Shown here one piece after another: positions 8,135 through 56,478 of a stretch of 64,000 nucleotides of DNA. This DNA comes from Candidatus Omnitrophota bacterium. GTDB lineage: Bacteria; Omnitrophota; Gorgyraeia; Zapsychrales; Fredricksoniimonadaceae. The stretch lies in assembly GCA_028865345.1 (NCBI GenBank), contig JAGWKL010000007.1:6089-70088 (forward strand). Reading direction: 5' to 3'. The notes under the pieces were generated by a model. That model had not been told where the DNA came from and did no database searches. It saw nothing but the letters and a program-made list of their open reading frames with translations. Position numbers and translations under genes: made by a program. How positions within the stretch are numbered: the stretch's first letter is position 1; every line of letters starts with the position of its first letter.

Positions 8135-8149
8135 AGGCCTTGGTCCTTA

Positions 8150-8506: not shown

Positions 8507-8515
8507 TCAGTCCTT

Positions 8516-8935: not shown

Positions 8936-8968
8936 GCCCCGCCTCACCTTCTCCAAAGACAAACGGCC

Positions 8969-40227: not shown

Positions 40228-40250
40228 CAGCAGCGTTCTTTCGAAATTAA

Positions 40251-40289
40251 GGGGACACAATGCTTAAACCGTTTAAGTATTGTGTCCCC
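40251..40289 (+). terminator. Long hairpin (terminator/attenuator) between rplT and pheS; member of GGGGACAC palindrome family
   Basis: GGGGACACAATGCTTAAAC-C-GTTTAAGTATTGTGTCCCC, 19-bp arms with one mismatch. Confidence 0.5.
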
Positions 40290-40305
40290 TTAATTCTTAT
40301 CTTAG

Positions 40306-41328
40306 GTGCATGTAATGCCTTGGAATTTTCAAGAGATCGAAGCCCGGATCAAAACCGAGGTTCAAACTGTGGGGACGCCGCAGGAACTGGAGGCTTTCCG
40401 CCTGAAGTATTTAGGCAAAAAAGGCCTTGTCCATGCCGTGTTTGCGTCGTTGGGCCAGGCGGCAGGGCAGGAGAAGGCGGCCATCGGCAAAGGCGCCAAT
40501 GATTTAAAAAAGCTCGTCGAGGAATTGATCGAAGCTAAAGCCGGCTGGGTCAAAGCAGCCGAGAAATTTGAAGAACGGGCGGATATTTCTCTTCCAGGCG
40601 CCGGCCAGGCCCTGGGGCACACGCATCTTTTGACACAGACCATGCAGGAGATCACCTTGATCTTTGAGCGCATGGGATTTATCACCGTCGAGACCCCTGA
40701 AATAGAGACGGAATTCCACAATTTTACCGGATTAAACATTCCCGTCGACCATCCTTCCAGAGACGCTTTTGATACTTTTTATTTGGATGCCGAAGACCCT
40801 TCGGCGAAAGGCCGCCGCCTTTTGTTGCGCAGCCATACTTCGCCGGGACAGGTGAGGATCATGAAGGAACATAAGCCGCCTTTGGCGGTCATTGTCCCCG
40901 GCCGCGTATACCGTCCTGATGCGGTGGATGCCAGCCATTCGTTCATGTTCCATCAGGTGGAGGGGCTATTGGTCGATGAAAAAGTGTCGTTCTGTGAGCT
41001 CAAAGGCCTGCTGCAGGAATTCTGCCGCCGGTTCTTCGGCCCCAAGGTCGTTATGCGCTTCCGTCCGCACTTTTTCCCATTTACCGAGCCTTCGGCGGAA
41101 GTGGACATCGATGCCGGAATTTTAGGAATTGAACGTAAAAAATGGCTGGAAATCCTGGGCTGCGGCATGGTCAATCCCAGGGTGTTTGAAGCGGTGGGAT
41201 ATTCCAAGGGCAAATACAAAGGCCTGGCCTTTGGCATGGGTGTTGAGCGTATGGCCATGCTCAAATACGGTATCAATGATATCCGTTTGTTTTATGAAAA
41301 CGATGTGCGGTTCCTGAGGCAGTTTTAA
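40306..41328 (+). CDS. pheS: Phenylalanyl-tRNA synthetase alpha subunit
   Basis: Class II core motifs (FRPHFFPFTEPSAEVD, GCGMV). Confidence 0.9.
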   Translation: MHVMPWNFQEIEARIKTEVQTVGTPQELEAFRLKYLGKKGLVHAVFASLGQAAGQEKAAIGKGANDLKKLVEELIEAKAGWVKAAEKFEERADISLPGAGQALGHTHLLTQTMQEITLIFERMGFITVETPEIETEFHNFTGLNIPVDHPSRDAFDTFYLDAEDPSAKGRRLLLRSHTSPGQVRIMKEHKPPLAVIVPGRVYRPDAVDASHSFMFHQVEGLLVDEKVSFCELKGLLQEFCRRFFGPKVVMRFRPHFFPFTEPSAEVDIDAGILGIERKKWLEILGCGMVNPRVFEAVGYSKGKYKGLAFGMGVERMAMLKYGINDIRLFYENDVRFLRQF

Positions 41329-41331
41329 CTT

Positions 41332-43356
41332 ATGAAACTATCTCTCAACTGGTTAAAAGATTATATCGACCCTAAATTGTCGACGGATGAACTGGCCGAG
41401 CGCCTGACCATGGCCGGCCTGGAAGTGGAAGCGGTGGAAGCCCGCGGCAGGGACATGGTTTTGGAGATGGAGATCACGCCCAATCGCCCGGACTGTTTGA
41501 GTGTTTTAGGGCTGGGCCGGGAGATCAGCGCTATTACAGGCCGGGCCCTCAAATGCCCCAAGATCAGGGAGCACAAGACCGTAACGCTAAAGGACCTCGT
41601 CCGGATCGAAAATAAAAAAGACTGCTGCCGGTATATCGCGACCCTGATGAGGGGCGCCCGGATCAAGGATGCCCCCACAGAGATGAAGGCGCGCCTCGAG
41701 GCCATGGGTATCAACGTGATCAATAATGCCGTGGACATCACCAATTTCGTCCTGATGGAAACGGGCCAGCCCCTGCATGTTTTTGATTATGATAAATTGT
41801 CGGGCGGCAAGATCATCGTGCGCCGGGCCAGGGCAGGGGAAAGCATCATAACCCTCGACGGCGTTGAACGCAAACTGGACCCCGAAATTTTAGTGGTCGC
41901 AGATGCCGAAAAGCCGGTGGCCATCGCCGGGATCATGGGCGGACAGGATGCGCAGATCACCGCGCAGACAAAAAACATTTTACTCGAAAGCGCTCATTTC
42001 GAGATGGGGATCGTGCGCAGGGCCTGCCGCAGACTGGGGCTTAGGAGCGAATCCTCATACCGTTTTGAACGCAACGTGGATCTCGACGGAGTTTTGACCG
42101 GTGCCGGTCGGGCCGTTGATCTGCTTTTGCAGACGACAGGCGGACATTTGGGCGGACGCGCGGAAATCTTTTCTAAAACAAGAATTTCCAGGCCTAAGAT
42201 AAAGGTCAGGATTTCCGGCGTTAAGGAGCTTCTTGGCATCGAAGTTGCTCCCGCAAAAGTTAAGGGCTGGCTCGTCCAATTGGGATTTAAAGCGGCGATC
42301 AAGGCGGGTATTTTGACGGTCGTCCCTCCGTCCAACCGCGCGGACGTGGCTCAGGAAGCGGATGTGATCGAAGAGGTCGCCCGCATGGTGGGTTTTGACC
42401 GGTTGCCTGCTCAAATACCGGTCATCAAATCAGCCAATATCACCGTCGACGCAAGGCCCCGGGAAATTAAAACGGATATTCGCCGGGCCCTGACAGCGGC
42501 CGGGATGGATGAGATTATTACCCTGTCCATGATCAATGCCGCGACCCTTGTCAAAACAAACATCACACAAATGCCGGGCATCAAGATCTTCAACCCGCTT
42601 TCCCAGGACCAGGAACTGATGCGTCCGGTGTTGCTGCCGTCGTTCCTGCAGGTGGCGGCCACCAACATGAACCGCGGCCAAAAGAATTTGCGGTTTTTCG
42701 AAATCGGCAAAACGTATTTCCAGGGCAAAGAAAGGGACGCTTTGGGAGTTTTCTTGACGGGCCGGCGGACGCATGATTGGCGGGCATCGGAGAAAGAGCA
42801 AGTCGATATCTTTGATTTAAAAGGCGCCCTGGAGCGCGTTTTTCAAATAACAGGGACCGGCGCGGGGTATGAAGACGTTGCGATACCTGCCTTTGACCCC
42901 GGTTGCGCCGCATACATCGCAGTCAACGGAAAGCAGATAGGGATTATGGGCAGGGTGAACAGAAGCGTGTTAAATAATTGGGACATCAAACATCAGGACA
43001 TTTATTTTGCCGCGCTTTTTCTGGATGAGATTTTGTCCGCGTCCCATAAGGCGGTGCGCTACGAGCCCATTTCGGAATTCCCGGCCATCGTCAGGGACGT
43101 GTCCCTGGCGGTTGACAAAAGCGTTCCTTACAAAAAGATCGAAGACATTTGCAGGCAACAGGGAGGGGAGATTTTAAAATCCGTTCAATTTATAGAGCAG
43201 TATTCAGGAGACAAGATCCAGCCGGGCTGCAAGGGAATTGTGTTTTCCTGCCGCTACCAATCTTCCAGCCGGACCCTGCGGGAAGACGAGGTCACACAGG
43301 CCCATGAACGCCTTGTACAGGCGTTGTCCCGCGATTTAAATGCCGTCCGCCGGTAA
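41332..43356 (+). CDS. pheT: Phenylalanyl-tRNA synthetase beta subunit (674 aa, short form)
   Basis: MKLSLNWLKDYID N-terminus, B3/4 and B5 domains, C-terminal FDX-ACB-like region. Confidence 0.9.
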   Translation: MKLSLNWLKDYIDPKLSTDELAERLTMAGLEVEAVEARGRDMVLEMEITPNRPDCLSVLGLGREISAITGRALKCPKIREHKTVTLKDLVRIENKKDCCRYIATLMRGARIKDAPTEMKARLEAMGINVINNAVDITNFVLMETGQPLHVFDYDKLSGGKIIVRRARAGESIITLDGVERKLDPEILVVADAEKPVAIAGIMGGQDAQITAQTKNILLESAHFEMGIVRRACRRLGLRSESSYRFERNVDLDGVLTGAGRAVDLLLQTTGGHLGGRAEIFSKTRISRPKIKVRISGVKELLGIEVAPAKVKGWLVQLGFKAAIKAGILTVVPPSNRADVAQEADVIEEVARMVGFDRLPAQIPVIKSANITVDARPREIKTDIRRALTAAGMDEIITLSMINAATLVKTNITQMPGIKIFNPLSQDQELMRPVLLPSFLQVAATNMNRGQKNLRFFEIGKTYFQGKERDALGVFLTGRRTHDWRASEKEQVDIFDLKGALERVFQITGTGAGYEDVAIPAFDPGCAAYIAVNGKQIGIMGRVNRSVLNNWDIKHQDIYFAALFLDEILSASHKAVRYEPISEFPAIVRDVSLAVDKSVPYKKIEDICRQQGGEILKSVQFIEQYSGDKIQPGCKGIVFSCRYQSSSRTLREDEVTQAHERLVQALSRDLNAVRR

Positions 43357-43358
43357 GT

Positions 43359-43829
43359 TCAATTTTGTTTAAATTGTCTTTTTACCCCGGGCCGGGTAAA
43401 AAAGTAGATCAGTAAAAGCCCAAAGATGACATCGATGGACCTTTGGATGATCAGGGCTGGCCATACAAAATCGGAGAAGCTGAATGGAAAAATGCTGCCC
43501 AGGGTTTGGTCCAGGTATTGGGCATGAAGGGCGTAGGCGGCATAAGGGTGTTTCAAGTTGACAAGCAAGACCACAAAAAGGCTGTTGAAGACCGCCAGCT
43601 TTCTGCACCATTCATTCAATTTCAGTATGCCGATCCCGGCGACAAGCCCCAAAAGTTTAATGATCCAGGAAACCCCATAGCGCAGGTCAATGATGCCGGG
43701 AGGGTATTGCCCGAAAAGATAGGCATAATGTTTATAGCCCCCCAAGGCCAGGGCGGTCATTTGATATAAGGAACCCAGTATCAGCAGCCAGCCCCAGACA
43801 GTGACCCCGTTAGATCTGGTGTTTACCAT
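43359..43829 (-). CDS. Hypothetical integral membrane protein (156 aa)
   Basis: Four predicted hydrophobic helices; no recognisable family. Confidence 0.35.
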   Translation of the reverse strand: MVNTRSNGVTVWGWLLILGSLYQMTALALGGYKHYAYLFGQYPPGIIDLRYGVSWIIKLLGLVAGIGILKLNEWCRKLAVFNSLFVVLLVNLKHPYAAYALHAQYLDQTLGSIFPFSFSDFVWPALIIQRSIDVIFGLLLIYFFTRPGVKRQFKQN

Positions 43830-43888
43830 TGCTTTAAAGAATATCTTGTTTTCCGGTTCTTATCTATGATAAACTTTTTTTAAAATAC

Positions 43889-44674
43889 ATGGATAAAAAA
43901 TTCAAGCGCGTCCTTATCACCGGAGCAACGGGCCAATTGGGAAGCCGTCTTGTTTCCAGCGGATTGTTCCCCGGCCCCCTGACACCCTCCCGACGTCAAC
44001 TGGACCTTTGCGAGGACGAAAGCGTCAGGGAATATTTCCAGGCGCATTCTTTTGATGCGGTGATCCACACGGCGGCCCTGGCCAGGATGCGCGATTGCCA
44101 CCGCAACCCCGCCCTGGCCCTGGAGACGAACATGACGGGCACCTTGCGGCTGGTCAGGGCGACGCTGGACAAAGAAAAGAAAATAAAAAAAACACTGAGG
44201 TTCGTTTATATTTCCACCGACGGGGTGTATGCCGGCGTTCGCGGACGCTACAAAGAGACGGATGCAGCCATTCCATATAATCATTACGGCTGGACAAAGC
44301 TGGGAGGCGAATGCGCGGTCCATTTATTGAGGGACCATTGCATTGTCCGCACCCGGTATTTTGACCCGGGCGACCTGCCGTTCACGAAGTACACCGCGGA
44401 TGCGTATAATTCAGGCATCCCCTTGGACGAACTGGTCAAAGCCATTTACGGACTTTTATATTCGGAATTTTCAGGCACGGTGAATGTGGGCGGCAGGCGC
44501 GGCTCGGACTACGGGCGGTACAGAAAATATAAAACAGCCGTTAAGCCCTGCCTTTTAAAAGAAATCCAGAAAAAGACCCCATTTATCCTCTCCCGCGATG
44601 CTTCTTTAAATTGCGGTCTTTGGAGAAAAATAAATCCCTATGGTGCTTACCGTTATCGTTCCTTTCCATCATGA
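43889..44674 (+). CDS. NAD(P)-dependent sugar epimerase/reductase (RmlD-like)
   Basis: VLITGATGQLGSRL Rossmann motif, YxxxK-type region. Short SDR sugar reductase. Confidence 0.55.
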   Translation: MDKKFKRVLITGATGQLGSRLVSSGLFPGPLTPSRRQLDLCEDESVREYFQAHSFDAVIHTAALARMRDCHRNPALALETNMTGTLRLVRATLDKEKKIKKTLRFVYISTDGVYAGVRGRYKETDAAIPYNHYGWTKLGGECAVHLLRDHCIVRTRYFDPGDLPFTKYTADAYNSGIPLDELVKAIYGLLYSEFSGTVNVGGRRGSDYGRYRKYKTAVKPCLLKEIQKKTPFILSRDASLNCGLWRKINPYGAYRYRSFPS

Positions 44675-45356
44675 AGGGCAAAACATGGCCTCAACCCTCC
44701 GGGGCCTTCAAGGGGTTTTGAATGTTCCCCATGAAATTCTGCTTATCCATGACGATAAAGAAGAACCTGCCCTGCCCTTTGTTAAACCTATTCAGGCAAA
44801 GGACGCCTCCATGCAGATCCTGTTGAATGCCTGCTTGCCCGGCGTTGCCGGCGCCATCAGGACCGGACTGGAAAGGGCAAGAGGACAATATGTTCTTTTT
44901 CTCGTCGCAGATGATCAAGGACCGCTGGCCATCATTAACCCGATGCTTGATTTAATGCGCAGGGGCTATGACGTGGTCTCCGGGACACGTTATGCCGGCA
45001 GCGGGGGCGTTTCAGGGGGAGGATTTTGGGCCAACGCGGCCTCGGCCTGGGGCAACCGGACCTTTGGGTTGTTGGCCTCCAGCCAATTCTCCGACGCGAC
45101 ATGCGGCATCAAAATGTTCCGTAAAGAAATTCTCCAGGGAGCCCCATTCAACGCCGGGGCAGGCTGGGCTGTTGTATTTGAGCTTGCCGTCAGGGCCGAG
45201 CGGCAGGGGCTTAAGGTCGCGGAAATACCGTATGTCTCTTACAATCGCGTTGAGGGCGGGATGTCTCATTTTAAAATAGGGCCGCGGATGCTTGGCTATG
45301 GGAAAATATTCTTAAGGGAAGCGGTCAATCTCAGGTTTAGGAAAACACATGCCTGA
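44640..45356 (+). CDS. Family 2 glycosyltransferase (Dpm1/polyprenyl-phosphate sugar synthase-like)
   Basis: LTVIVPFHHEGQN..LIHDDKEE (DxD region) typical of GT2 Dpm1-like enzymes. Confidence 0.55.
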   Translation: MVLTVIVPFHHEGQNMASTLRGLQGVLNVPHEILLIHDDKEEPALPFVKPIQAKDASMQILLNACLPGVAGAIRTGLERARGQYVLFLVADDQGPLAIINPMLDLMRRGYDVVSGTRYAGSGGVSGGGFWANAASAWGNRTFGLLASSQFSDATCGIKMFRKEILQGAPFNAGAGWAVVFELAVRAERQGLKVAEIPYVSYNRVEGGMSHFKIGPRMLGYGKIFLREAVNLRFRKTHA

Positions 45357-46593
45357 ACATGTTTTAATAAAGCACTGTCAAATCTGTCAGGGGCCGACGC
45401 AGGAGGCTCTGTCCTTGGGTGATCTCCCCCTTGTGGACTGCTTAATGGAGCCGTCGGATGTCCATGCCCCTGTTGCGCGGTATCCGGCCAACCTGCAGCA
45501 CTGTCCTTCCTGCCGGCTCGCCCAACTGGGTTGCATTGTTGATAATCGATTGCGTTTTCCCCCGGAGTATCCGTATACCAGCGCCACGACGAAAATATTA
45601 CGGGACAATTTTTCTCAATTGGCCCTGGAGACGGGGGAGTTTACCGCATTAAATACGGACGATTTGGTCCTGGACATCGGATGCAATGACGGTACATTGC
45701 TGAAGAATTTCAAAGACCGGACGAAGGTGTTGGGTGTGACCCCTGAGGACATGGGACAAGCGGCCCTTCAGCAGGGGATCGACGTGATCCAGGCCTATTT
45801 TACGCCCGCCGCAAGGCAGGAAATCCTGCGGCGCCATGGACAGGCGACGGTCGTCCTTGCCGCCAACGTGCTGGCCCATTTCGACGATATCAACAGGGCC
45901 GTCGATGACATCAAACAGCTGTTGAAGCCTCACGGCCTTTTTATTTCGGAATCGGGGTATCTTTTTGACATGCTCGAAGGGCTGCAGTATGATTCCATCC
46001 ACCACGAACATCTGCGTTATTATTCATTGGCGAGCCTGAAGGTCCTTTTTGACAGGCATGGCCTTCAGATCATCCACGCCGCAAAAATAAACACGCATGG
46101 AGGATCCTTGCGTGTTTATGCCGCCTTTCAGGGGAAATACCCCGTGCGTTCAAGCGTGGCGGCGATTTTGAAGGAAGAAGCGGACAAAAATCTCATTTTC
46201 CTGCTCGATGATTTCCATCGGAGGGCCGGAGAACATAAAAGCTGTTTATCCCGGCTGTTGCGCGGGCTTAAAAGCAGACATAAGACCATTCAAGGCATCG
46301 GAGCGCCGGGACGCGCGACTGTGCTTATGAATTATGCGGGGATCGACAATGCCATCCTCGATGGGGTGGCCGAAATCGAAGGTTCGCACAAGATCGGCAA
46401 GATCATTCCGGGCACGGGGGTCAGGATCGTCTTGCAACAGGAATTTTTTAAAAATCAACCTGATTATGCTCTGATGCTTTCCTGGCATATCGCCGGAGAA
46501 CTTATGCCGAAACTTAAAATGCAGGGGTTCCGGGGGGACTTCATATTGCCGTTGCCTAAACCAGTTCTTATCAGCAGCCAGGATGCCGGATGA
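45349..46593 (+). CDS. SAM-dependent C-methyltransferase with N-terminal zinc-ribbon (NDP-hexose C-methyltransferase-like)
   Basis: CQICQG..CPSCRL zinc ribbon, VLDIGCNDGTLL SAM motif I, C-terminal C-methyltransferase-like domain. Confidence 0.5.
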   Translation: MPEHVLIKHCQICQGPTQEALSLGDLPLVDCLMEPSDVHAPVARYPANLQHCPSCRLAQLGCIVDNRLRFPPEYPYTSATTKILRDNFSQLALETGEFTALNTDDLVLDIGCNDGTLLKNFKDRTKVLGVTPEDMGQAALQQGIDVIQAYFTPAARQEILRRHGQATVVLAANVLAHFDDINRAVDDIKQLLKPHGLFISESGYLFDMLEGLQYDSIHHEHLRYYSLASLKVLFDRHGLQIIHAAKINTHGGSLRVYAAFQGKYPVRSSVAAILKEEADKNLIFLLDDFHRRAGEHKSCLSRLLRGLKSRHKTIQGIGAPGRATVLMNYAGIDNAILDGVAEIEGSHKIGKIIPGTGVRIVLQQEFFKNQPDYALMLSWHIAGELMPKLKMQGFRGDFILPLPKPVLISSQDAG

Positions 46594-47327
46594 GCGGACA
46601 GGACAGCCTGCAGGAGATTGCTTTTTTTGACGAGTTTACCCGCAGCAGGGATTACGACAGCCTGATGCCCCGTGGCTACCGGGCCATTATCAAAGCCTTC
46701 TGTGAGTGTTTGGGGCCGAGGCGTTCACAGGTGCGCACGGCCGTGGACCTAGGCTGCGGGACAGGCTCTTTTACCCGGCGGTTTTTTCAGCAGGACGGCT
46801 TGGTGGGTGTGGGGGTCGATATTTCTTTTCAAGCCGTTCGAAGGGCCGCATCCAATAACGACGGGATCCATTATTTCGTTTCCGACATCAGCCGCACGGC
46901 CATCAAAGACGGGTCCGTGGATCTGGTGGTTTTTTCCGGCGTGCTGCACCATTTTCCGGATATGACAGCCTGTCTCAATGAGGCCCGCAGGATCTTAAGA
47001 AAAGGAGGGATGTTCCTATCCTATGACCCGCATATCCACAATCCCTGCATGTGGCTTTACCGGCATCCCCGGTCGCCTTTTTATTCAAAAGCGGGAAAAA
47101 CAGCCAATGAGAGACTCCTTTCCAAACAGGAAATGCAGGAAGCTTTGCATAAATCCGGATTCATCAACATCAAAACCTTGGCCATCAGCGGAGTGGCCAT
47201 CTCTTATTTGGAATCGCCGGCGGCCCGGAGGTTTCTGGCTTTTTACAATGCCTTTGAATACCTGCTGGGGTTGCTGCCTGTTTCCAGAAGCATAGGGTCT
47301 TTCTTGATTTGCTATGCGGAAAAATAA
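46590..47327 (+). CDS. Class I SAM-dependent methyltransferase
   Basis: AVDLGCGTGSFT motif I, VDLVVFSGVLHH motif. Confidence 0.55.
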   Translation: MSGQDSLQEIAFFDEFTRSRDYDSLMPRGYRAIIKAFCECLGPRRSQVRTAVDLGCGTGSFTRRFFQQDGLVGVGVDISFQAVRRAASNNDGIHYFVSDISRTAIKDGSVDLVVFSGVLHHFPDMTACLNEARRILRKGGMFLSYDPHIHNPCMWLYRHPRSPFYSKAGKTANERLLSKQEMQEALHKSGFINIKTLAISGVAISYLESPAARRFLAFYNAFEYLLGLLPVSRSIGSFLICYAEK

Positions 47328-47512
47328 GCGTATAATATATCCAGCCCTGCGCTGTGCGATAGGATCCAGGATGTATTGAACCACAAAACAATACACAGGG
47401 AGCCGGTCACCTGTCGGCGTGGCCTTCGAGCCAGCCTCACACTGGCGCCCACTTGAGAATGATGGTTCTCATTTACACCAGGTCCAACGGCAGAGGCGGG
47501 GTTTTTTTAAAA

Positions 47513-47534
47513 GGGGACACAGTACTGTGTCCCC
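47513..47534. terminator. Perfect 22-nt palindrome GGGGACACAGTACTGTGTCCCC flanked by T/A runs (bidirectional terminator-like)
   Basis: Preceded by GGGGTTTTTTTAAAA and followed by TTTTCC. Same arm sequence as the elements at 40251, 54123 and 56437. Confidence 0.5.
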
Positions 47535-47547
47535 TTTTCCTACTTAA

Positions 47548-48858
47548 ATGTCTACTTTGTTTTCTTCAGATGAAACAATCATTCCCTCGGATGCGCCCTT
47601 AAGCGCCCGTATGCGGCCGCGCTCCATAGAAGAGTATGTAGGCCAGCGGCATATTTTAGGGGAAGGCAAACTGCTCAAGCGCGCCATCGAAGCGGACAGG
47701 ATCTCTTCGCTCATTCTTTACGGCCCTCCGGGAGCCGGAAAAACAAGCCTGGCCCTGTGCATTGCCCACAGGACTAATGCGCATTTTGAACGGATCAACG
47801 CGGTGTCCTCCAATGTTGAAGAGATGCGCAAGATCATTGCTGCGGCCCAACACCGCCGGGGCACGGCAGGCCGCAAGACCATTGTTTTTATCGATGAGAT
47901 CCACCGGTTTAACAAGGCCCAACAGGATGTGCTGATGCCGGACATCGAAGAGGGCAATATCATCCTGATCGGCGCGACCGTTTTTAACCCTTTCTTTGCC
48001 TTGGTGGCCCCGCTGCTGTCGCGCTCATTGATTTTTGAACTTGATCCCCTGGCCCCGGAAGACCTGATGACCTTGATGCGGCGCGCCATTGCCGACAAAG
48101 AAAAGGGTTTAGGGGCCTTGCCTGTTGACATCGATGATGATGCTCTTGCCTTCTTGTCGTCCATCAGCGACGGTGATGCCAGAAAGGCGCTTAACGCCCT
48201 GGAAGTGGCGGTCCTGACAAGCGTTAAATCCGCCGACGGGCGTATTCACATCACCATGGCCACGGCCCAGGAGTCCATCCAGAAAAAACAAGTGAATTAT
48301 GACCGGGACGGCGACGCCCACTATGATACGATCTCCGCTTTTATCAAATCCATGCGTGGCTCAGATCCGGATGCTGCACTTTATTGGATGGCCAAGATGA
48401 TCTATGCCGGGGAAGACCCGCGGTTTATCGCCCGGCGTGTTGTGATCTGCGCTTCGGAAGATGTGGGTAATGCGGACCCGCAGGCGCTGGTCGTGGCCAA
48501 TGCCGCCCTCCAGGCCGCGGAATTTGTCGGCCTTCCGGAAGCGCGCATCATTCTGGCGCAGGCAGCCGTTTATGTGGCGTGCGCTCCTAAATCCAATGCC
48601 GTTTATGTTGGGATCGACCGGGCCTTGGACGATGTGAAAAACAGACGCACGCAGGAAGTCCCGGCGCACCTGAAAGACGCCCATTATAAAGGGGCGGACA
48701 AGCTGGAGCATGGAAAAGGATATAAATACGCCCACAACTACCCGCAACACCACGTGCAACAGGAGTATATGCCGGACAAAGCCGTTTATTATGAGCCCAC
48801 CCTGCAAGGGTATGAGGCCAGGATCAAAGAGAGAATGGACAAATTAAAGAAAAAATGA
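47548..48858 (+). CDS. rarA: Replication-associated recombination protein A (RarA/MgsA AAA+ ATPase)
   Basis: LYGPPGAGKTSLA Walker A, IVFIDEIHRFNK, sensor motifs, MgsA C-terminal domain. Confidence 0.85.
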   Translation: MSTLFSSDETIIPSDAPLSARMRPRSIEEYVGQRHILGEGKLLKRAIEADRISSLILYGPPGAGKTSLALCIAHRTNAHFERINAVSSNVEEMRKIIAAAQHRRGTAGRKTIVFIDEIHRFNKAQQDVLMPDIEEGNIILIGATVFNPFFALVAPLLSRSLIFELDPLAPEDLMTLMRRAIADKEKGLGALPVDIDDDALAFLSSISDGDARKALNALEVAVLTSVKSADGRIHITMATAQESIQKKQVNYDRDGDAHYDTISAFIKSMRGSDPDAALYWMAKMIYAGEDPRFIARRVVICASEDVGNADPQALVVANAALQAAEFVGLPEARIILAQAAVYVACAPKSNAVYVGIDRALDDVKNRRTQEVPAHLKDAHYKGADKLEHGKGYKYAHNYPQHHVQQEYMPDKAVYYEPTLQGYEARIKERMDKLKKK

Positions 48859-48874
48859 TAGTATAGCCGCACAC

Positions 48875-49426
48875 ATGAAGGACAAAAGCTCTTTAAGAGC
48901 GTATTATTTAAAGCTTCTTGGAGAGCAGGACAAAGAGCAATGTGCGCGTAAAAGCCATTTGGTTGCGGAGCAATTTTGGCAATTGCCGTCCGTCCAAAAG
49001 GCCCGCCACATTCTTTTTTATGTATCCATGCCGGGAGAGGTGGATACTTCAGCGATGATTCACAAGGCTTTTTATCTCGGTAAAAGGGTGGCATTACCCA
49101 TTGTTGAACAAAATCAAAGGAAGCTAATTCCTACATTCATCTCATCCATGGAAGATGTCCATAAGGGCGCATACGGTATTCCGGAACCTTATTTTGATCC
49201 CCAAAAGACAGCTGCCGCTAAGGACCTCGATGCGGCGGTCGTGCCGGGCCTGGCGTTTGACAGGCTCCATCACCGTTTGGGGCGCGGGGCCGGGTATTAC
49301 GACCGCTTTTTGAGCACGCTTCCGGACAGGGTGACGACGATCGGCCTTGCCTTTGATTTTCAACTCACCGAAAGCCTTCCTACTGAGGCGCATGATATGC
49401 CCCTCAGCCAAGTCATCGCAGCCTAA
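48875..49426 (+). CDS. 5-formyltetrahydrofolate cyclo-ligase
   Basis: MTHFS pattern (VVPGLAFDRLHHRLGRGAGYYDRFL); 183 aa. Confidence 0.7.
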   Translation: MKDKSSLRAYYLKLLGEQDKEQCARKSHLVAEQFWQLPSVQKARHILFYVSMPGEVDTSAMIHKAFYLGKRVALPIVEQNQRKLIPTFISSMEDVHKGAYGIPEPYFDPQKTAAAKDLDAAVVPGLAFDRLHHRLGRGAGYYDRFLSTLPDRVTTIGLAFDFQLTESLPTEAHDMPLSQVIAA

Positions 49427-49453
49427 TAATCTCATTTTCAAGGAAGGATCGCC

Positions 49454-51025
49454 ATGGAAGTCAATACACTCGGGCAGGCATTTATTTTTGTTTTTGCCGC
49501 CATCGTCTGCGTTATTGTCGGGTTTTTCCTCAACCGTCTCCTCGGCCGCCAGCGCCTGGATCAGGCGCATAAAGACGCCGGGGGCATCAGAGAATTGGCC
49601 CAGCGCGAGGCGCAGGCCATCCGCAAGGAGGCCGAACTGCAGGCCAAGGACCTGTTGCTTAAAATGCGACAGGATTTTGAGAAGGAGACCAAGGAACGGC
49701 GTGAAGAACTCAGCGGCATGGAAAAGCGTGTTTTGCAACGCGAGGAAAATCTTGACAAACGCGTTGACCTGCTGGAGAAAAAGGAAAAGGACATGTCCAT
49801 GCGTCTGGAGGCGCTGGCGCGCAACGAGGCCGGCTTTAAACAAAGAGATGAGGAGTTGACCAAGGTCCTGGCCCAGGAGAAGGAAAGGCTTTATACCATT
49901 GCCAACCTTTCCCCCCAGGATGCCAGGCAGATCCTTTTGGCCCGTCTTGAAGAGGAATTGTTGAACGAAAAAGCCGTACGCCTGCGCCATATCAATGAGG
50001 AGATCAAGGAAACTTCGGAGAAGAAAGCGCGCGAGATCATCAGCACCGCCATTCAGCGCTGCGCTTCCGATCACACGGCGGAGACCACGATTTCGGTCGT
50101 CCCGCTGCCTTCGGATGAAATGAAGGGACGCATCATCGGACGCGAGGGCAGGAACATCCGCACCCTGGAACAAGCCACGGGCGTTGATATCATCATTGAT
50201 GACACGCCTGAAGCGGTGACGATCTCGGGTTTTGACATGATGCGCCGCGAGATCGCGCGCATAGCCCTGGAGCAGCTCATCGCGGATGGGCGCATCCATC
50301 CCGGACGCATCGAAGAGGTCGTGGAAAAGGCCAAGGCCGAGATCGAAAAGAAGATCAAAGAGGAAGGTGAGCGCGCGGCCCTTGAGCTTGGGATCCACGG
50401 CATGCATCCGGAGCTCATTAAACTGGTGGGGCGCCTGCGTTACCGTACGTCTTTCGGGCAGAACGGCCTCAACCATTCCATTGAGGTGGCCAAGCTGATG
50501 GGCATCATGGCGCACCAGATCGGCGTCGATGTCAAGACCGCCAAGCGCGCCGGATTATTGCATGATATCGGCAAGGTGGTTTCTTCCGATGTGGAAGAAG
50601 GCACGCACGCCATCGTGGGTGCCCGCTTGGCGCGCAAATACGGCGAATCGGAAGATGTGGCCTATGCCGTGGAAAGCCACCACGGCGAAGTGGAAATGAA
50701 CACGGTCTATGGGATCCTGGTTTCCGCGGCGGATGCCATCAGCGCCTCGCGTCCCGGCGCCCGCGCCGAGAGCATGGAGACATACGTCAAGCGCCTGGAG
50801 AACCTGGAAAAAATTTCCAATTCGTTTAAAGGGGTGGAAAAGTCCTACGCCCTGCAGGCCGGCCGCGAAATAAGGGTCGTGGTGATGCCGGAGAAGGTCA
50901 ATGACGATGAGGCCGTGGTGATGGCCCGGGACATCCGCAAGAAGATCGAAGAAGAGATGGAATATCCAGGCCACATCAAGGTCATGGTGGTACGGGAGAT
51001 CCGGGCTGTGGAATATGCCAAATAG
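49454..51025 (+). CDS. rny: Ribonuclease Y
   Basis: N-terminal TM, coiled-coil, KH domain ([15 protein letters not shown]), HD domain (LLHDIGK). Confidence 0.85.
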
Positions 51026-51082
51026 AATCAAGCGCAGCGAACGAGCCCAAGGGCTGTTTGATGCACTGCGAGGGTATGCGCT

Positions 51083-51937
51083 ATGAATATATTATGCATA
51101 GGTGATATCGTCGGACGTCCCGGAAGGGAAGCGGTGGCCGCGCTATTGCCGAAAATGAAAAAAGAACATGCCATCGATCTGGTGGTCGCCAACGCCGAGA
51201 ACGCCTCCGGCGGCGCCGGGCTTATCCCCAAAAATGCCGATGAGATTCTGGGCATGGGTGTTGATGTGATGACGATGGGAGACCATGTTTGGGACAAGCC
51301 GGAAATATTTGGTTATTTACAGGAGCGCAGGGAAAACATCATCCGTCCGGCTAATTTTCCGGAAGGAGTGCCGGGTTTCGGATGGACCGTGGTGACGGCC
51401 TCCAACGGCGTCCGGGTCGGCATAATAAATCTTTTAGGCCGTACCTTTATGCGGTATAATGTTTTTTGTCCTTTTTTGACGTTGGAATCCATAGTGTCTA
51501 AGATCAGGGACCAGGCGTCTGTGATCATTGTCGATATGCATGCGGAAGCCACCAGTGAAAAGGTGGCGCTGGGCCATTTTGCAGACGGGAAAGCTTCCCT
51601 GGTATTCGGCACGCACACGCATATACAGACAGCCGATGAAAAAATTTTGCCCCAAAAGACGGCGTATATCACGGATGTGGGCATGAGCGGTCCTTATGAT
51701 TCAGTCATCGGTCAGGACAAGGTGAAAATCATCAACCGTTTTCTGACCAGCATGCCGCATAAATTTGAAGTGGCCCAGTCCTCCGGGACTGTCCACGGGG
51801 TGATCGTCAAGGTGGACGCCCGGACCGGAAGGGCGGAAGCGGTGAGGCGGGTTTCGCAAGAATCACCGATGGCACAACCGGCTGCTAAAGCCCCGTCTAC
51901 GGCGGGACGAAAGGCCGCTTCCGACAATGGAAATTAA
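51083..51937 (+). CDS. ymdB: YmdB-like metallophosphoesterase (TIGR00282 family)
   Basis: MNILCIGDIVGRPGR..VVANAENASGG motif; conserved rny-ymdB pairing. Confidence 0.8.
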   Translation: MNILCIGDIVGRPGREAVAALLPKMKKEHAIDLVVANAENASGGAGLIPKNADEILGMGVDVMTMGDHVWDKPEIFGYLQERRENIIRPANFPEGVPGFGWTVVTASNGVRVGIINLLGRTFMRYNVFCPFLTLESIVSKIRDQASVIIVDMHAEATSEKVALGHFADGKASLVFGTHTHIQTADEKILPQKTAYITDVGMSGPYDSVIGQDKVKIINRFLTSMPHKFEVAQSSGTVHGVIVKVDARTGRAEAVRRVSQESPMAQPAAKAPSTAGRKAASDNGN

Positions 51938-51995
51938 GGAAAGCGGCACTTCGAATCAATGGAAAAGCATAATGGAATTATAAGGAAGGAGTGAT

Positions 51996-52388
51996 ATGTC
52001 TTGGGAAGGGATTGACCGCAGAAAATTTCCCAGAGTGTTGTATCCGTGCCTGGTCAAGGTCATCTCCGCCGACCGCCGCCAGGAAGCCCTGCTGACCCAT
52101 ACGGAAAATATCGGGATGGGGGGCTTGAGCGTCACCGTCAAGCATGAGATCAAGCTGTTCACGCCCATGGAGATGGAAGTTGACCTTTTGGACCTCGAAG
52201 AGCACATTACTCCCAAAGGCAAGGTGGTTTGGAATGTGAGGCGTAAATCCATCGAAGAAATAAAACCCATGTTTTATGATATCGGCATCGAATTCACGGA
52301 AATCTCCAAGAAAGACCATGAGCGCTTGAGGGAAAACCTTCAGAGGCTCATTGAAAAAGGGGTCAAGGTCTCAAAGCCGTTTATCTAA
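51996..52388 (+). CDS. PilZ domain protein (c-di-GMP binding)
   Basis: RRKFPR (RxxxR) and ENIGMGG (D/NxSxxG-like) PilZ motifs. Confidence 0.55.
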   Translation: MSWEGIDRRKFPRVLYPCLVKVISADRRQEALLTHTENIGMGGLSVTVKHEIKLFTPMEMEVDLLDLEEHITPKGKVVWNVRRKSIEEIKPMFYDIGIEFTEISKKDHERLRENLQRLIEKGVKVSKPFI

Positions 52389-52404
52389 AAATAAAAGCTG
52401 TTTT

Positions 52405-52764
52405 ATGTTTGACGCCAACCGCAGAAAATACCCCAGGGCCAATTTTCCGTGCCAGTTGACAATGTGGCTCGCCGACGGGGCGAGTGACACAATATTGGTT
52501 GAAACAACCAATATTGGGGCCGGAGGCGTGTGCGTGCAGATCAACCGGGGGATCGATCTGGGGGCGCAGGTGGATATTCAGGTCCATTTTAAGAATCCGA
52601 CAACCCCCTTCAAATGCCGTGGAATCGTGGTGCGTTCACGGAAGGTCTCGGAGACGCAATATGATATCGGCATTCAGTTTGAACCTTTGGGTGAATTGAA
52701 AAGCGCGTTTCTGGATGGAAAAGTGTCCGAGCTCATAGAGTTGGAGAACAAGAGAAAAAGCTGA
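52405..52764 (+). CDS. PilZ domain protein (second tandem copy)
   Basis: NRRKYPR and TNIGAGG motifs. Start adjusted to MFDANRR, since the track ORF 52351 overlaps the previous gene. Confidence 0.55.
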   Translation: MFDANRRKYPRANFPCQLTMWLADGASDTILVETTNIGAGGVCVQINRGIDLGAQVDIQVHFKNPTTPFKCRGIVVRSRKVSETQYDIGIQFEPLGELKSAFLDGKVSELIELENKRKS

Positions 52765-54035
52765 TGGTCCGCGTACGGTTTGCCCCTTCTCCAACAGGAT
52801 TCTTACATATCGGTTCCGCCCGTACCGCGCTTTTTAACTGGATGGTGGCCCGTGCCCAAGGCGGAAAATTCATCCTGCGCATCGAGGACACAGACCAAGT
52901 CCGCTCCAAGACGGAATTTCTCGAAGAGATCCTTGAGAGCATGAAGTGGCTGGGCCTGACCTGGGACGAGTATTACAAGCAAAGCGACCGTTTTGACATC
53001 TACCGCCAATATGCCGGCAAGCTGCTCTCCGAAGGCAAGGCTTATCAGGACGGGGCCGCCGTTGTCCTGAAGGTCCCTCAAAAATCCATCAAGCTCTATG
53101 ATCTGATCCGCGGCGAGATCGTCGTCGACACCAAGGAGATCAAGGACCAGGTGCTGATGAAGTCCGACGGGTCGCCGACCTACAGTTTTGCCTGCGTGGT
53201 GGATGATGCCCTTATGGAGATGACCTGTATTATCCGCGGGGAAGACCATATCTCCAACACGCCCAAACAAATGTTGATCTATGAAGCGCTGGACTTCAAG
53301 ATCCCCAAATTTGCGCATCTGCCGTTGATCCTGGATCCCGAGGGCGGGCGCATGTCCAAAAGGGCCGGGGCCACGGCGGTTTCGGAATACCGCACCCAGG
53401 GGTTTTTGCCGCAAGCCATTGTCAATTATCTTATGCTCCTGGGCTGGTCACCCGGAAACAACCAGGAGAAGGTGTCCATGGCCTCGGCGCTCAAGACATT
53501 TTCTATAAAGAAGGTCAATAAAGCCGGGGCGGCATTTTCATTTGAAAAACTTCAATGGCTCAACAGCCAATATATCCGGGAAATGGATACAGCCAGGCTT
53601 GCAGAAGCGTTAAGGCCATTGGTTGCGGCAAGGTATCCGCAAGCAGATCTTCAAGGGGCTGATTTTGAGCGTATGGTACAATTATATAAAGGACGCATGA
53701 ATACGCTGGCGGATTTTCTGGATTGGACGGATTATATATTCACTGACCTTGTCCCTTTTGATCCTGAGGCAAAGGCCGCGCATTTGACCCGGGACATGGG
53801 CAAAGAATTTGATGTGCTGGCACAACAGCTGGGCGCCGTCGATGATTTTAACGCCAAGACTGCGGAAGAAACCTTTCGTTCGGTGGTCGCAGGACTTGGC
53901 ATTGAGGCCGGTACCCTGGTCCATCCTGTAAGGGTGGCCCTGACGGGCCGTGCCGTGGGGCCGGGCCTGTTTGACACCATGGCGGTTTTGGGCAAAGAAA
54001 GGACCATCCGCCGACTGAAAGAAGGGTTTCATTGA
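52764..54035 (+). CDS. gltX: Glutamyl-tRNA synthetase (short, 423 aa)
   Basis: HIGSARTALFNW (HIGH) and KMSKR motifs. Shorter than typical GluRS. Confidence 0.85.
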   Translation: MVRVRFAPSPTGFLHIGSARTALFNWMVARAQGGKFILRIEDTDQVRSKTEFLEEILESMKWLGLTWDEYYKQSDRFDIYRQYAGKLLSEGKAYQDGAAVVLKVPQKSIKLYDLIRGEIVVDTKEIKDQVLMKSDGSPTYSFACVVDDALMEMTCIIRGEDHISNTPKQMLIYEALDFKIPKFAHLPLILDPEGGRMSKRAGATAVSEYRTQGFLPQAIVNYLMLLGWSPGNNQEKVSMASALKTFSIKKVNKAGAAFSFEKLQWLNSQYIREMDTARLAEALRPLVAARYPQADLQGADFERMVQLYKGRMNTLADFLDWTDYIFTDLVPFDPEAKAAHLTRDMGKEFDVLAQQLGAVDDFNAKTAEETFRSVVAGLGIEAGTLVHPVRVALTGRAVGPGLFDTMAVLGKERTIRRLKEGFH

Positions 54036-54039
54036 TTAT

Positions 54040-54113
54040 TGCCTTGTCGTCTAATGGTAGGACATGAGATTCTGGATCTCAGTATCTTGGTTCGAGTCCA
54101 AGCGAGGCAACCA
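54040..54113 (+). tRNA. tRNA-Gln: tRNA-Gln (CTG), CCA encoded
   Basis: Hand-folded: acceptor TGCCTTG/CGAGGCA (one GU), anticodon stem TGAGA/TCTCA, loop TTCTGGA, T-loop TTCGAGT. Confidence 0.7.
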
Positions 54114-54122
54114 GTTTTTAAA

Positions 54123-54150
54123 AGGGGACACTTTAAAGTGTCCCCCTTTT
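54123..54150 (+). terminator. Rho-independent terminator, GGGGACAC palindrome family
   Basis: GGGGACACTTTAAAGTGTCCCC followed by CTTTTTTT; upstream TTTTTAAAA (bidirectional). Confidence 0.6.
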
Positions 54151-54275
54151 TTTAGCCAGGCGGCACTTCAAAGAAAACACCGGCGGAGGTGTAAATTGAG
54201 GGACAAAATCCGGATTTTGTATTAGAATAAGGAACTTTTTATAATGATTTTTTGTCTAAATAATGGGATGAACGG

Positions 54276-54836
54276 ATGGACATCGCCCAAGATATTTTGA
54301 TCAGGGCTTCCCGGGGTGAAGCCCAGGCCTTTGAAGAGGTTTATAAAGCAACCAGCGGCTTTGTCTATAACGTGGCTTTGCGGATCGTTAACAATAGAGA
54401 AGACGCCCTGGAAGTGGCCCAGGAGGTTTTTTTGATCGTCCATGACAAGCTTAAAACGTTCCGGTTTGAGTCTTCCTTTAAGACCTGGGTCTACAGGATC
54501 ACGGCCAATACGGCCATCAATTTTGCCAAAAAGAATTCCAGGCTTAAGTCTGTGCCTTTTGAAGAGTCTTTGATGGAGCCTCCGGCGGAAAATGAAGCTC
54601 TTACACAGATGGACCAGGAATACCACAACCGGCTTGTTGAAAAGCTGTTGGGTGAACTTAATTGTGAACAAAGGGCGTGTGTGGTGCTGAGGGACATTCA
54701 GGGGTTAAGTTATGAGGAGATGGCGCAGGCGCTGAACATCAATATCAATACGGTGCGTTCCCGGCTCAAAAGGGCGCGGGAGAAATTGTTGAGCTTAAAG
54801 CAATCGGTGGATTATGAAAAAGTGCGGACATTTTAA
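54276..54836 (+). CDS. ECF-type RNA polymerase sigma-70 factor
   Basis: Region 2 (YRIT-like WVYRITANTAINF) and region 4 HTH (LSYEEMAQALNININTVRSRL). Confidence 0.8.
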   Translation: MDIAQDILIRASRGEAQAFEEVYKATSGFVYNVALRIVNNREDALEVAQEVFLIVHDKLKTFRFESSFKTWVYRITANTAINFAKKNSRLKSVPFEESLMEPPAENEALTQMDQEYHNRLVEKLLGELNCEQRACVVLRDIQGLSYEEMAQALNININTVRSRLKRAREKLLSLKQSVDYEKVRTF

Positions 54837-55296
54837 AGATTTGATCCTCACGGATTATATAGACGGCCGGCTGGATAAAAATGCCGTTGCGGCCTTAGAA
54901 AGCCATTTGCTTGAATGCAGTGATTGCAGCGCTTTTTTTAAAGAAGTCAAGAATACGGCGGTATCTCCTTTCCATCGGGCCTTGCAGCAGCCCCCTCCTG
55001 CCGGGCTATGGGAGGCGGTGAAGCAGGCAGTAGAACAGGAAGAACAGCCGGGGTTTGGGGAGAATTTCATTAACGGATTAAAGGGTTGGATGGTTTTTCC
55101 AAGACTGGTACCGGTTGCGGCGACACTTGTGCTGATGCTTTTGGCGGGAGGGGTTTCTTTGACGACCCTGCAGGCCGACCGGGCCCAGGAGAAGGCGGAT
55201 GCCGCGTACTTGGTTTCGCTGTTCAATGCAGGCGGAGGCGCATCGTCGTCGGACAATACCAGCCTGGGAACGCCCATTGAGAAATATTTTCTTTAG
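54814..55296 (+). CDS. Anti-sigma factor (zinc-finger type), membrane-spanning
   Basis: HLLECSDCSAFF zinc-finger anti-sigma motif, central TM (VAATLVLMLLAGGV). Overlaps the sigma gene. Confidence 0.55.
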   Translation: MKKCGHFKDLILTDYIDGRLDKNAVAALESHLLECSDCSAFFKEVKNTAVSPFHRALQQPPPAGLWEAVKQAVEQEEQPGFGENFINGLKGWMVFPRLVPVAATLVLMLLAGGVSLTTLQADRAQEKADAAYLVSLFNAGGGASSSDNTSLGTPIEKYFL

Positions 55297-55308
55297 AGGA
55301 GGGAATAT

Positions 55309-55764
55309 ATGCCAAGCGTTAAAAAAATTTTATTTTGTTTTTTAAGTTCATCCCTGTTGATGGCCGTGCCGTTGGCGCTGGCCCAGGACGCCCCCGGTCA
55401 CGAAGGGCACTTCCCCAATGCCCGCATGGAAAAGCGCATCCATGAAGTTTTTAACCAGCTTGGCCTGACAGAAGAACAAAAGAAGGAACTGCAAGCCAAT
55501 AAAGAAAAATATCGCCCAAGAATAATCAGCGAACACCGGCAGATGAGGGCGGTCATGGAAGCTCTCAGGAAGGAATTGATGAAGCCCCGGTTAAATATGG
55601 CCAGGATCCATCAGCTCCACAACCGGACCAAGGACCTGATGTCTCAAATGGAAGACGACAGGCTTACCTCGATCCTCGCGGTCAGGGTGATCCTGACCCA
55701 GGGGCAGTTTACAAAATTCGTCAACCTGATGGAGCAATTTAAGCATGAGCGCCATGAGAAGTGA
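55309..55764 (+). CDS. Periplasmic Spy/CpxP-family (LTxxQ-motif) protein
   Basis: Signal peptide, LGLTEEQKKELQ LTxxQ motif, helical; 151 aa. Confidence 0.5.
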   Translation: MPSVKKILFCFLSSSLLMAVPLALAQDAPGHEGHFPNARMEKRIHEVFNQLGLTEEQKKELQANKEKYRPRIISEHRQMRAVMEALRKELMKPRLNMARIHQLHNRTKDLMSQMEDDRLTSILAVRVILTQGQFTKFVNLMEQFKHERHEK

Positions 55765-55765
55765 A

Positions 55766-56419
55766 TTAGAGCGGAGCCCTTTTATGTTTGAAAAATTCCA
55801 GGAAGGCCGGTATCAGAGAAATGCCGACGATCACTAAAATGACCCAGGAAAAGTTATGCCGCACAAAAGGCAGGTTACCGAAGAAAAACCCGCTTAAGAC
55901 CCCTACCAAAACCCAGGCCGTTCCCCCGATAATGTTATAGATTGTGAATTTGGCATACGGCATGCCGCCTACCCCCGCCAGGAAAGGAGCAAAGGTCCGG
56001 ATGATGGGCATAAACCGCGTGATGATGATGGTCTTGGCCCCGTATTTTTCGAAAAAGGCATGCGTACGCTTGATGTAGTTCTGGTTGACAAAAGGCCCGG
56101 CGCGGTGACTCGTAACTTCGTCGGCCAGGAATACGCCGATCGCATAATTGAGCATGTTGCCGCCGACGGCGGCAAGCGTGAGGCCTACGACCAGCAGCCC
56201 TAATTGCAGGGTGCCGGAGGCGGCCATGGCCCCCAGGACAAAAAGCAGGGAATCCCCAGGCAGAAAAGGCGTCACCACCAGGCCGGTTTCACAAAAAATG
56301 ATGACAAACATGATGAGGTAGGTCCATACCCCGTAATGGATGACGATGGCCCCCAGGTGGCGGTCCAGATGGAGCAGAAAATCGGCGTACTGGTGCAGTA
56401 AGGGCATGGGGGACATCAT
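55766..56419 (-). CDS. DedA/SNARE-associated family membrane protein
   Basis: DedA signature G(x)2F(x)3R-like region (ITRFMPIIRTFAPFLAGVGGMPYAKF), multiple TMs; 217 aa. Confidence 0.7.
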   Translation of the reverse strand: MMSPMPLLHQYADFLLHLDRHLGAIVIHYGVWTYLIMFVIIFCETGLVVTPFLPGDSLLFVLGAMAASGTLQLGLLVVGLTLAAVGGNMLNYAIGVFLADEVTSHRAGPFVNQNYIKRTHAFFEKYGAKTIIITRFMPIIRTFAPFLAGVGGMPYAKFTIYNIIGGTAWVLVGVLSGFFFGNLPFVRHNFSWVILVIVGISLIPAFLEFFKHKRAPL

Positions 56420-56436
56420 AACAGAAAAAGGAAAAA

Positions 56437-56458
56437 GGAGACACTTTAAAGTGTCTCC
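56437..56458. promoter_or_regulatory. Palindrome GGAGACACTTTAAAGTGTCTCC in divergent promoter region (variant of GGGGACAC family)
   Basis: Between the dedA start (56419, minus) and the hypothetical gene (56479, plus). Compensatory G>A/C>T changes keep the palindrome. Confidence 0.4.
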
Positions 56459-56478
56459 TTTTCGCGTATAATGAAAGA

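Follow-up and report, generated by a model that had tools for sequence, protein, structure and literature searches.

The stretch of DNA analysed here (the window) comprises 64,000 nt of contig JAGWKL010000007.1 from the Candidatus Omnitrophota assembly GCA_028865345.1 (positions 6,089 to 70,088, forward strand), is 99.4–99.7% identical to contigs of three NCBI metagenome-assembled genomes (MAGs), and carries four short palindromes that are treated here as members of a dispersed repeat family. All four are intergenic, lie within 16 kb of one another (a density of 4 per 64 kb), and share the stem GGRGACAC/GTGTCYCC. Copy 1, the long-arm form (core 40251–40289, full palindrome 40245–40295), reads AATTAA-GGGGACACAATGCTTAAAC-C-GTTTAAGTATTGTGTCCCC-TTAATT, and its 19-nt arms differ by a single G/A difference that gives a G–U pair as RNA. 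Copy 2, the short form (core 47513–47534, extended 47509–47538), reads AAAA-GGGGACAC-AGTACT-GTGTCCCC-TTTT, and copy 3 (core 54124–54145, extended 54120–54150) is the canonical 22-mer GGGGACACTTTAAAGTGTCCCC, with five C in its right arm and the flanks AAAA and CTTTTTTT. Copy 4, a variant (core 56437–56458, extended 56433–56462), reads AAAA-GGAGACAC-TTTAAA-GTGTCTCC-TTTT and has GGAG/CTCC instead of GGGG/CCCC, both sides being altered (G>A and C>T) with pairing kept, so that the compensatory changes reported in a first-pass annotation of this DNA are real. The immediate flanks are AAAA/TTTT on copies 2–4 and TTAA/TTAA on copy 1. The coordinates given in that annotation were exact for copies 1, 2 and 4, and one base off for copy 3, which it had placed at 54123–54144.

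Copy 1 lies 24 nt past the stop codon of rplT (40227) and 10–20 nt ahead of pheS. Copy 2 is located directly behind the T-run that closes a 6S RNA gene, 10 nt before the ATG of rarA (47548), and copy 3 just past tRNA-Gln(ctg), at the end of gltX–tRNA-Gln. Copy 4 occupies a 71-nt gap between a minus-strand dedA/VTT gene (start at 56407 or 56419) and a plus-strand 220-aa open reading frame (ORF; 56479) for which no Pfam match was obtained, and overlaps candidate −35 regions of two possible divergent promoters (plus strand, TATAAT at 56467–56472 leading to the ATG at 56479; minus strand, TATGAT at 56420–56415 leading to the ATG at 56407). The TATAAT ends 6 nt, and the TATGAT 7 nt, before the respective ATG; the dedA/VTT gene and the 220-aa ORF (window 56405–56481) are both possibly leaderless, and two metagenome copies of the hairpin have the same layout (hairpin, 8–9 nt, (TG)TATAAT, 7–8 nt, ATG). 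By gene calls, the contexts assigned in the first pass (rplT/pheS, rarA, tRNA-Gln, dedA divergent gap) are correct, although for copy 2, rightly described as lying before rarA, the 6S RNA gene (RF00013) directly upstream had been missed.

All four palindromes claimed earlier are present in the sequence, and none arises by shuffling: the patterns GGGGACAC-N(0-25)-GTGTCCCC and GGAGACAC...GTGTCTCC gave 0 matches in 100 dinucleotide-preserving shuffles of the window. A search of the window for degenerate copies returned none besides the four, and one other GGGGACAC half-site was located in it (24322, minus strand, intragenic). Predicted RNA folding energies of copies 1–4 were −34, −20.6, −18.4 and −19.6 kcal/mol, respectively, each beating 200 of 200 shuffles (z = −10.4 for copy 1); for copy 4 the two strands gave −19.6 and −19.7 kcal/mol. 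No Rfam family was matched at the window hairpins at gathering thresholds.

The palindromes belong to a repeat family that extends well beyond the window. The exact 22-mer GGGGACACTTTAAAGTGTCCCC was present in metagenome contigs at no fewer than 120 loci and in at least 128 copies, where chance would give a handful at most; the outcome named earlier as refuting a recurrent family, that these were the only copies, is thus not what relatives and metagenomes hold. The exact 22-mer was absent from viral contigs, and there is therefore no sign of a phage origin; it was also not found in the literature searched. With the loop left free in the query, four of the five Omnitrophota MAG matches among those listed were exactly GGGGACAC-TTTAAA-GTGTCCCC, the sequence of copy 3, and among the matches listed in reference genomes this TTTAAA-loop form occurred only in Omnitrophota MAGs. 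The sites of these matches are not orthologous (one follows tRNA-Leu, one a thioredoxin-like gene, one lies in an icd/lipB gap and one is downstream of tRNA-Gln), and sample Ga0206863, which yielded an Omnitrophota MAG, has at least 8 copies on 7 contigs. Density in the DNA flanking other loci was roughly 1 per 40–100 kb; sites were intergenic, typically with a stop codon or stable-RNA gene a few to a few tens of bases upstream. The generic pattern GGGGACAC-N(0-25)-GTGTCCCC was too loose for scans of whole collections, its scattered single matches in viral contigs (at least 120) being noise, and the looser pattern AAGGGGACAC...GTGTCCCCYT gave single matches across many unrelated phyla.

Among metagenome copies, the stem was GGGG/CCCC in 125, GGGG/CTCC in 2 and GGAG/CTCC in 1. 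The flanks extend the palindrome, as A5/T5 in ~75% of copies and as AAGATG/CATCTT, AAGAAG/CTTCTT or similar in the rest, and this outer stem changes in sequence yet stays complementary. Conservation stops beyond ~32 nt; the flanks are inverted rather than direct repeats, and no target-site duplication is present. In 929 kb, lone half-sites numbered 43, near the 28.5 that chance would give, and another 283 half-sites were within palindromes, which makes the hairpin, and not the 8-mer, the unit of the family.

The family is associated with a transposase gene. At several loci (metagenome and genome loci are designated L plus a number), two hairpin copies ~690 nt apart enclose an ORF of ~195 aa (MPRTSRVIVPGIPHHIIQRGNRKQ...NHVHLI...RYVERNPVRANL...), which matches PF01797 (Y1_Tnp) above cut-off (E 2e-10), and whose best NCBIfam model is NF047646, REP-associated tyrosine transposase (RAYT; REP, repetitive extragenic palindrome). 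A profile built from 28 homologues had as its best PDB match 4ER8, the Escherichia coli TnpA-REP (E 2.8e-6), ahead of ISDra2 TnpA; a single-sequence search against PDB gave no match. By tblastn and homologue look-ups, the gene was hairpin-flanked on both sides in seven separate loci, all outside the window, which answers the earlier suggestion to look for an associated RAYT/IS200-like transposase. The hairpins have the TTTAAA loop in L288, L292, L342 and L362, and the ACTAGT loop in L363; L353 is a 65%-GC contig, and L154, from an Aminicenantes MAG, has the CTGCAG loop with 6 repeats per 8 kb and a RAYT 54% identical to the Omnitrophota type. More distant homologues (58–62% identity; L366, L370, L365) lie between inverted half-sites with the same foot, among them those of an Omnitrophica WOR_2 MAG (CCGGGGACACGTAC...GTACGTGTCCCCCG) and a Deltaproteobacteria MAG (AATTCCGGGGACACAGTAC...GTATTGTGTCCCCGGAATT). 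The foot GGGGACAC/GTGTCCCC is constant across this transposase clade and the hairpin top is variable. Gene-less hairpins number ~130, against 4 transposase genes, in 833 kb of metagenome loci, and some of the transposase genes are situated in variable regions, next to RHS, IS110, IS1595 and toxin–antitoxin genes.

One homologue ties the transposase to the window more directly. The L365 RAYT (P0013) shares a 1.29-Mb contig with a RarA 83% identical to that of the window, and is bracketed by the left end TTAAGGGGACACAATACTTAA (TTAAAGGGACACAATACTTAA) and the right end TTAAGTATTGTGTCCCCTTAA. These ends are essentially the two arms of copy 1 (ATTAAGGGGACACAATGCTTAA...TTAAGTATTGTGTCCCCTTAAT), and because of this match copy 1 looks like the two ends of the L365 element minus the gene. 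A gene-less copy of the long form was also present in L304, beside a short 22-mer. We infer that the genome from which the window derives has a RAYT gene of its own.

Several side observations concern the same genes and hairpins. The RAYT ORFs of L288 (387–971), L292, L342 and L362 (2760–3341) end in '...EKGTL*' within the downstream hairpin, their stop codon being the TAA of the TTTAAA loop, and ~7 other crude ORFs in metagenome loci end at the same loop TAA; the hairpin can thus provide a stop on either strand. Aminicenantes and Acidobacteria MAGs (L154, L227, L234, L135) carry GGGGACAC-CTGCAG-GTGTCCCC, the same foot in another phylum, at 6–7 copies per 8 kb, often paired 73–83 nt apart as REPIN-like doublets (L154, L227). 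The foot GGGGACAC/GTGTCCCC also occurs with long family-specific upper stems (gacccttaatattaagggtc, gtactttttcgcgaaaaagtac, tcccctttttggaaaagggga) in other multi-copy nested palindromes, in Tepidisphaeraceae (L125, L130, L166, L188, L191), Allosphingosinicella (L221, L239) and an Acidobacteriota MAG (L160, L165, L237). An unrelated second hairpin repeat, GTCATTCCCGCGAAAGCGGGAATCCA, is present in several of the metagenome loci that bear the 22-mer (L242 at 6586–8970, L249, L267, L290).

Orthologous sites were compared in three syntenic relatives, L372 (RarA 85% identical) and L373 and L374 (83%), in which the genes from thrS through gltX, and further on, follow the same order. At site 1, L372 has a decayed orthologue (left foot mutated, top changed, right arm intact), and L373 and L374 have an unrelated native terminator (GCCCCGC...GCGGGGC, followed by a T-run). 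None of the three has a copy at site 2; in L372 and L374, rarA follows immediately on the G-rich stem and T-run that close the 6S RNA gene, and the window at this site has a clean extra block of ~30 nt (AAAAGGGGACACAGTACTGTGTCCCCTTTT) with no target duplication. At site 3, no family copy was present in L372, which has a native terminator (GGCGCA...TGCGCC-T6), or in L373, and L374 has another hairpin directly past the tRNA with a family copy ~100 nt further downstream. Two other loci with GltX 78% identical do carry the repeat here, L295 as the exact 22-mer after tRNA-Gln, and L344 as a near-copy one base shorter (3 C) directly after tRNA-Gln with the exact 22-mer further downstream. Site 4 was comparable in L372 only, where the gap between dedA and the gene for the 220-aa protein (p220) is without a copy. 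(In L373, contig_16581 of ERZ25039480, 1.29 Mb, pheS, pheT and other genes are broken into several short ORFs, which suggests frameshift errors of a long-read assembly and not real pseudogenes.)

Copies come and go between close relatives, which shows that the repeats are mobile, and are neither conserved operators nor ancient fixed terminators. The pattern of presence and absence fits transposition without target duplication. The earlier proposal of a conserved dimeric protein-binding site is not sustained: at orthologous sites, conservation is lacking for copy 4 and for most of the other copies.

In shape, the unit consists of an A-run, a G+C-rich stem (9–13 bp; 24 bp in copy 1) and a T-run, with a UUAA tetraloop in the short form, and is in form a textbook bidirectional intrinsic terminator, which makes a role in termination plausible. 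A terminator consensus scan flagged copies 1 and 3 (plus strand) and copy 4 (minus strand), and three of the four window copies follow 3′ ends (rplT, 6S RNA, tRNA-Gln). Since relatives have ordinary terminators exactly at sites 1 and 3 and no other strong hairpin is present there in the window, copies 1 and 3 are most likely the terminators now in use for the infC-rpmI-rplT and gltX-tRNA-Gln transcripts; the exaptation as terminators proposed in the first pass is to this extent plausible. Across the family, by crude ORF calls, the preceding stop codon is a median of 17 nt away and the following start codon 30 nt. Where the next start is within 10–30 nt (pheS, rarA), termination would have to be partial, or the hairpin would mainly affect RNA stability. 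Overall, placement fits insertion into any intergenic DNA with the A/T flanks carried along, any use as a terminator being opportunistic. The paired change in copy 4 is compatible with selection on the hairpin, with few cases to go by (single-sided GGGG/CTCC was seen twice).

The four palindromes are most probably gene-less copies of a REP-type family that is spread by a RAYT and is shaped like a two-way terminator, an explanation in which we have good confidence. The REP-like repeat proposed in the first pass is borne out by the further copies, the hairpin-flanked RAYT-type gene, the L365 ends that match copy 1, and the empty orthologous sites. The hairpin has a foot of 8 bp that is conserved (GGGGACAC/GTGTCCCC) and a top that varies, being either a 6-nt palindromic loop (such as TTTAAA or AGTACT) or a longer upper stem (copy 1). 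By analogy with E. coli TnpA-REP and the IS200/IS605 transposases, the RAYT (a REP-associated Y1/HUH tyrosine transposase with an IS200-like fold) would recognise the folded hairpin in single-stranded DNA, cut it and rejoin it elsewhere without target duplication, and would spread the family in this way. In most copies an A-run and a T-run stand on opposite sides, so that the unit, once transcribed, would be terminator-like in either direction. Copy 2 would then be an add-on behind the terminator of the 6S RNA gene itself, and copy 4 a recent, tolerated insertion in a divergent promoter gap with no evident role.

Several observations weigh against this explanation or against the terminator role that may accompany it. 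No RAYT gene was present in the 64-kb window, and the two closest NCBI homologues that were looked up belong to assemblies other than the source MAGs. The transposase scored 51.4 bits with NF047646 against a curated cut-off of 80, below the equivalog threshold. The four window copies are all singlets, with no inverted doublets (REPINs) in the window, and the flanks of the copies are without the GTAG/CGTC tag of classical REPs (PMC3733652). As regards a pure terminator role, the family showed no shortage of sites in divergent gaps (tandem 63, convergent 16, divergent 11, against 523, 76 and 71 among all the intergenic gaps of these loci, from crude longest-ORF calls and hence approximate), and its placement over the whole family is not specific to terminators. 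With respect to the direction of the upstream gene, A-run and T-run were symmetric (6.21 against 6.33 of 10 nt, p 0.47), and in tandem gene pairs the T-run was not longer on the transcription-downstream side, by the same approximate calls. Many copies are moreover only 6–30 nt from the next start codon, where efficient termination would cut operons.

A bolder form of the explanation is a portable terminator, in which a RAYT-mobilised symmetric REP (A-run, GGGGACAC foot, short top, T-run) would terminate transcription bidirectionally and would repeatedly have replaced native Omnitrophota terminators, in the window for instance those behind rplT and tRNA-Gln, the foot being kept across phyla by one transposase clade; we put this forward tentatively, judging it somewhat more doubtful than probable.

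The most serious competitor, to which we give a small but real share of the probability, holds that the repeats are miniature inverted-repeat transposable element (MITE)-like, gene-less derivatives of an active, horizontally moving insertion sequence (IS) of IS200/IS605 type, selfish and not partners of a single-copy, vertically inherited (domesticated) RAYT. In L366, L370 and L365 the transposase is indeed enclosed by inverted half-sites in the manner of IS terminal repeats, and copy 1 has the appearance of such ends joined. The same foot and homologous transposases recur in Omnitrophota, Aminicenantes, a Deltaproteobacteria MAG and a 65%-GC contig, some of the transposases have RHS, IS110, IS1595 and toxin–antitoxin neighbours in variable regions, and the transposase falls under the NCBIfam RAYT cut-off. 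The RAYT signature, by comparison, is one transposase per genome, tens of repeats, and a transposase tree matching the species tree (PMC5581495). The excess of hairpins over transposase genes (~130 to 4 in 833 kb), a profile nearer to TnpA-REP (4ER8) than to the IS200/IS605 TnpA structures, and the top rank of the RAYT model within NCBIfam all speak against a plain IS derivative.

Two further readings are much less likely. That the hairpins are ordinary intrinsic terminators, made alike by chance or by convergence of G-rich stems with A/T runs and having neither common origin nor mobility, would agree with three of four copies at 3′ ends, with the match to the terminator consensus, and with the single occurrences of AAGGGGACAC...GTGTCCCCYT in many unrelated phyla. 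It is nevertheless very improbable, given the absence of any copy from shuffles, the identical 22-mer, loop included, at least 128 times at non-orthologous sites, the seven loci with a transposase gene hairpin-flanked on both sides, the empty sites or different native terminators in relatives, and copy 4 in a divergent gap; the metagenome copies, the flanked transposase loci and the comparison of orthologous sites contradict it. Slightly less credible still, and close to negligible, is a site read as double strand by a host protein, either the operator of a dimeric DNA-binding protein or an uptake-type signal in inverted pairs. The perfect DNA palindrome with its 6-nt centre, the overlap of copy 4 with likely −35 regions of two divergent promoters, and the invariance of the sequence across species would suit such a site, but it is not conserved at orthologous positions (the L372 dedA/p220 gap being without a copy), the neighbouring genes have no common function, and, in contrast to uptake sequences, half-sites on their own occur at the frequency that chance predicts. 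The outer stem, variable but complementary, and the top, replaceable by a long stem in copy 1, are those of a hairpin and not of an operator of fixed spacing. A DNA uptake sequence (DUS/USS-like) was rejected separately, since the motif is not over-represented as single copies (43 against 28.5 expected in 929 kb), and NrdR, CRP-type and other operators, integron attC sites, CRISPR repeats, and MITEs with target duplications were rejected on spacing, size, housekeeping neighbours and inverted flanks.

Among known systems, the REP/REPIN-RAYT type of Enterobacteria and Pseudomonas comes closest (E. coli REP/BIME with TnpA-REP; P. fluorescens REPINs; PMC3116915, PMC3479197, PMC5581495). Common to both are short extragenic palindromes in many copies, usually sited just past stop codons, between or after genes, a Y1/HUH transposase gene between the same palindromes with gene-less copies far in excess, and insertion without target duplication, with presence and absence among related genomes. 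In classical REPs one end of the palindrome is marked by a conserved tetranucleotide, GTAG or CGTC (PMC3733652), whereas the window family has neither tag. Its unit, with a loop that is itself palindromic, is a perfect palindrome, so that no orientation can be defined for it, and its A-run/T-run flanks give it an intrinsic-terminator shape that classical REPs do not have. It occurs in the window as singlets and not doublets, its transposase is below the NCBIfam RAYT cut-off, and its 8-bp foot is common to several phyla, whereas classical REPs are lineage-specific. With the IS200/IS605 elements (IS608, ISDra2) it has in common the Y1/HUH fold (PF01797; weak profile matches to ISDra2 TnpA), hairpins at both ends of the transposase gene, and lack of target duplication, but here the hairpins are mostly dispersed without a gene, those to the left and right of the gene are one and the same perfect palindrome, and the closest solved relative is TnpA-REP and not an IS transposase. 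Untagged REP-like stem-loop families are listed for M. tuberculosis, D. radiodurans, Bordetella, Brucella and cyanobacteria (PMC3733652). These are likewise palindromic extragenic repeats without a conserved terminal tetranucleotide, and differ in that a flanking RAYT-type gene is demonstrable for the window family.

Among other dispersed and conserved hairpin repeats downstream of genes, the Neisseria DNA uptake sequences, as inverted pairs, and the Correia elements can double as terminators. Neisseria uptake sequences are mostly single copies, many of them intragenic, whereas single half-sites are at chance level here, and Correia elements are 100–150 bp with a TA duplication, whereas the window repeats are 22–50 nt with no duplication.

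Two features of the window stand apart from the repeats. The 6S RNA gene (ssrS, 47341–47506, plus strand; RF00013, 52.4 bits, above the gathering score of 46.4) is the context of copy 2 and not itself a repeat. It sits between a methyltransferase gene and rarA, with a TATAAT at 47331–47336, and the gene and its upstream TATAAT are kept in relatives L372–L374. The usual partner gene of 6S RNA is that for 5-formyltetrahydrofolate cyclo-ligase, which in the window is at 48875–49426, after rarA. Between ~28000 and 36000, G+C content is markedly lower (0.42–0.46 against ~0.53 elsewhere), and GC and AT skew flip sign at ~28–32 kb, which may reflect an island or a strand switch.

REP-RAYT systems have, to our knowledge, been studied almost only in Proteobacteria. 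The family described here would be a clear instance from Omnitrophota, a candidate phylum without cultured members, and has relatives in Aminicenantes and other groups. Its unusual traits are the missing GTAG/CGTC tag, perfect symmetry and built-in terminator shape; less usual, too, are its occurrence across phyla and the combination of a constant foot with changing tops. The shared 8-bp foot with interchangeable tops suggests concretely what the transposase may recognise. Annotators should not take these hairpins for operators or conserved regulatory sites, and they also account for assembly breaks and apparently 'conserved' intergenic 22-mers in Omnitrophota MAGs. If the portable-terminator idea were true, part of the terminators of this Omnitrophota lineage would be supplied by a mobile element.

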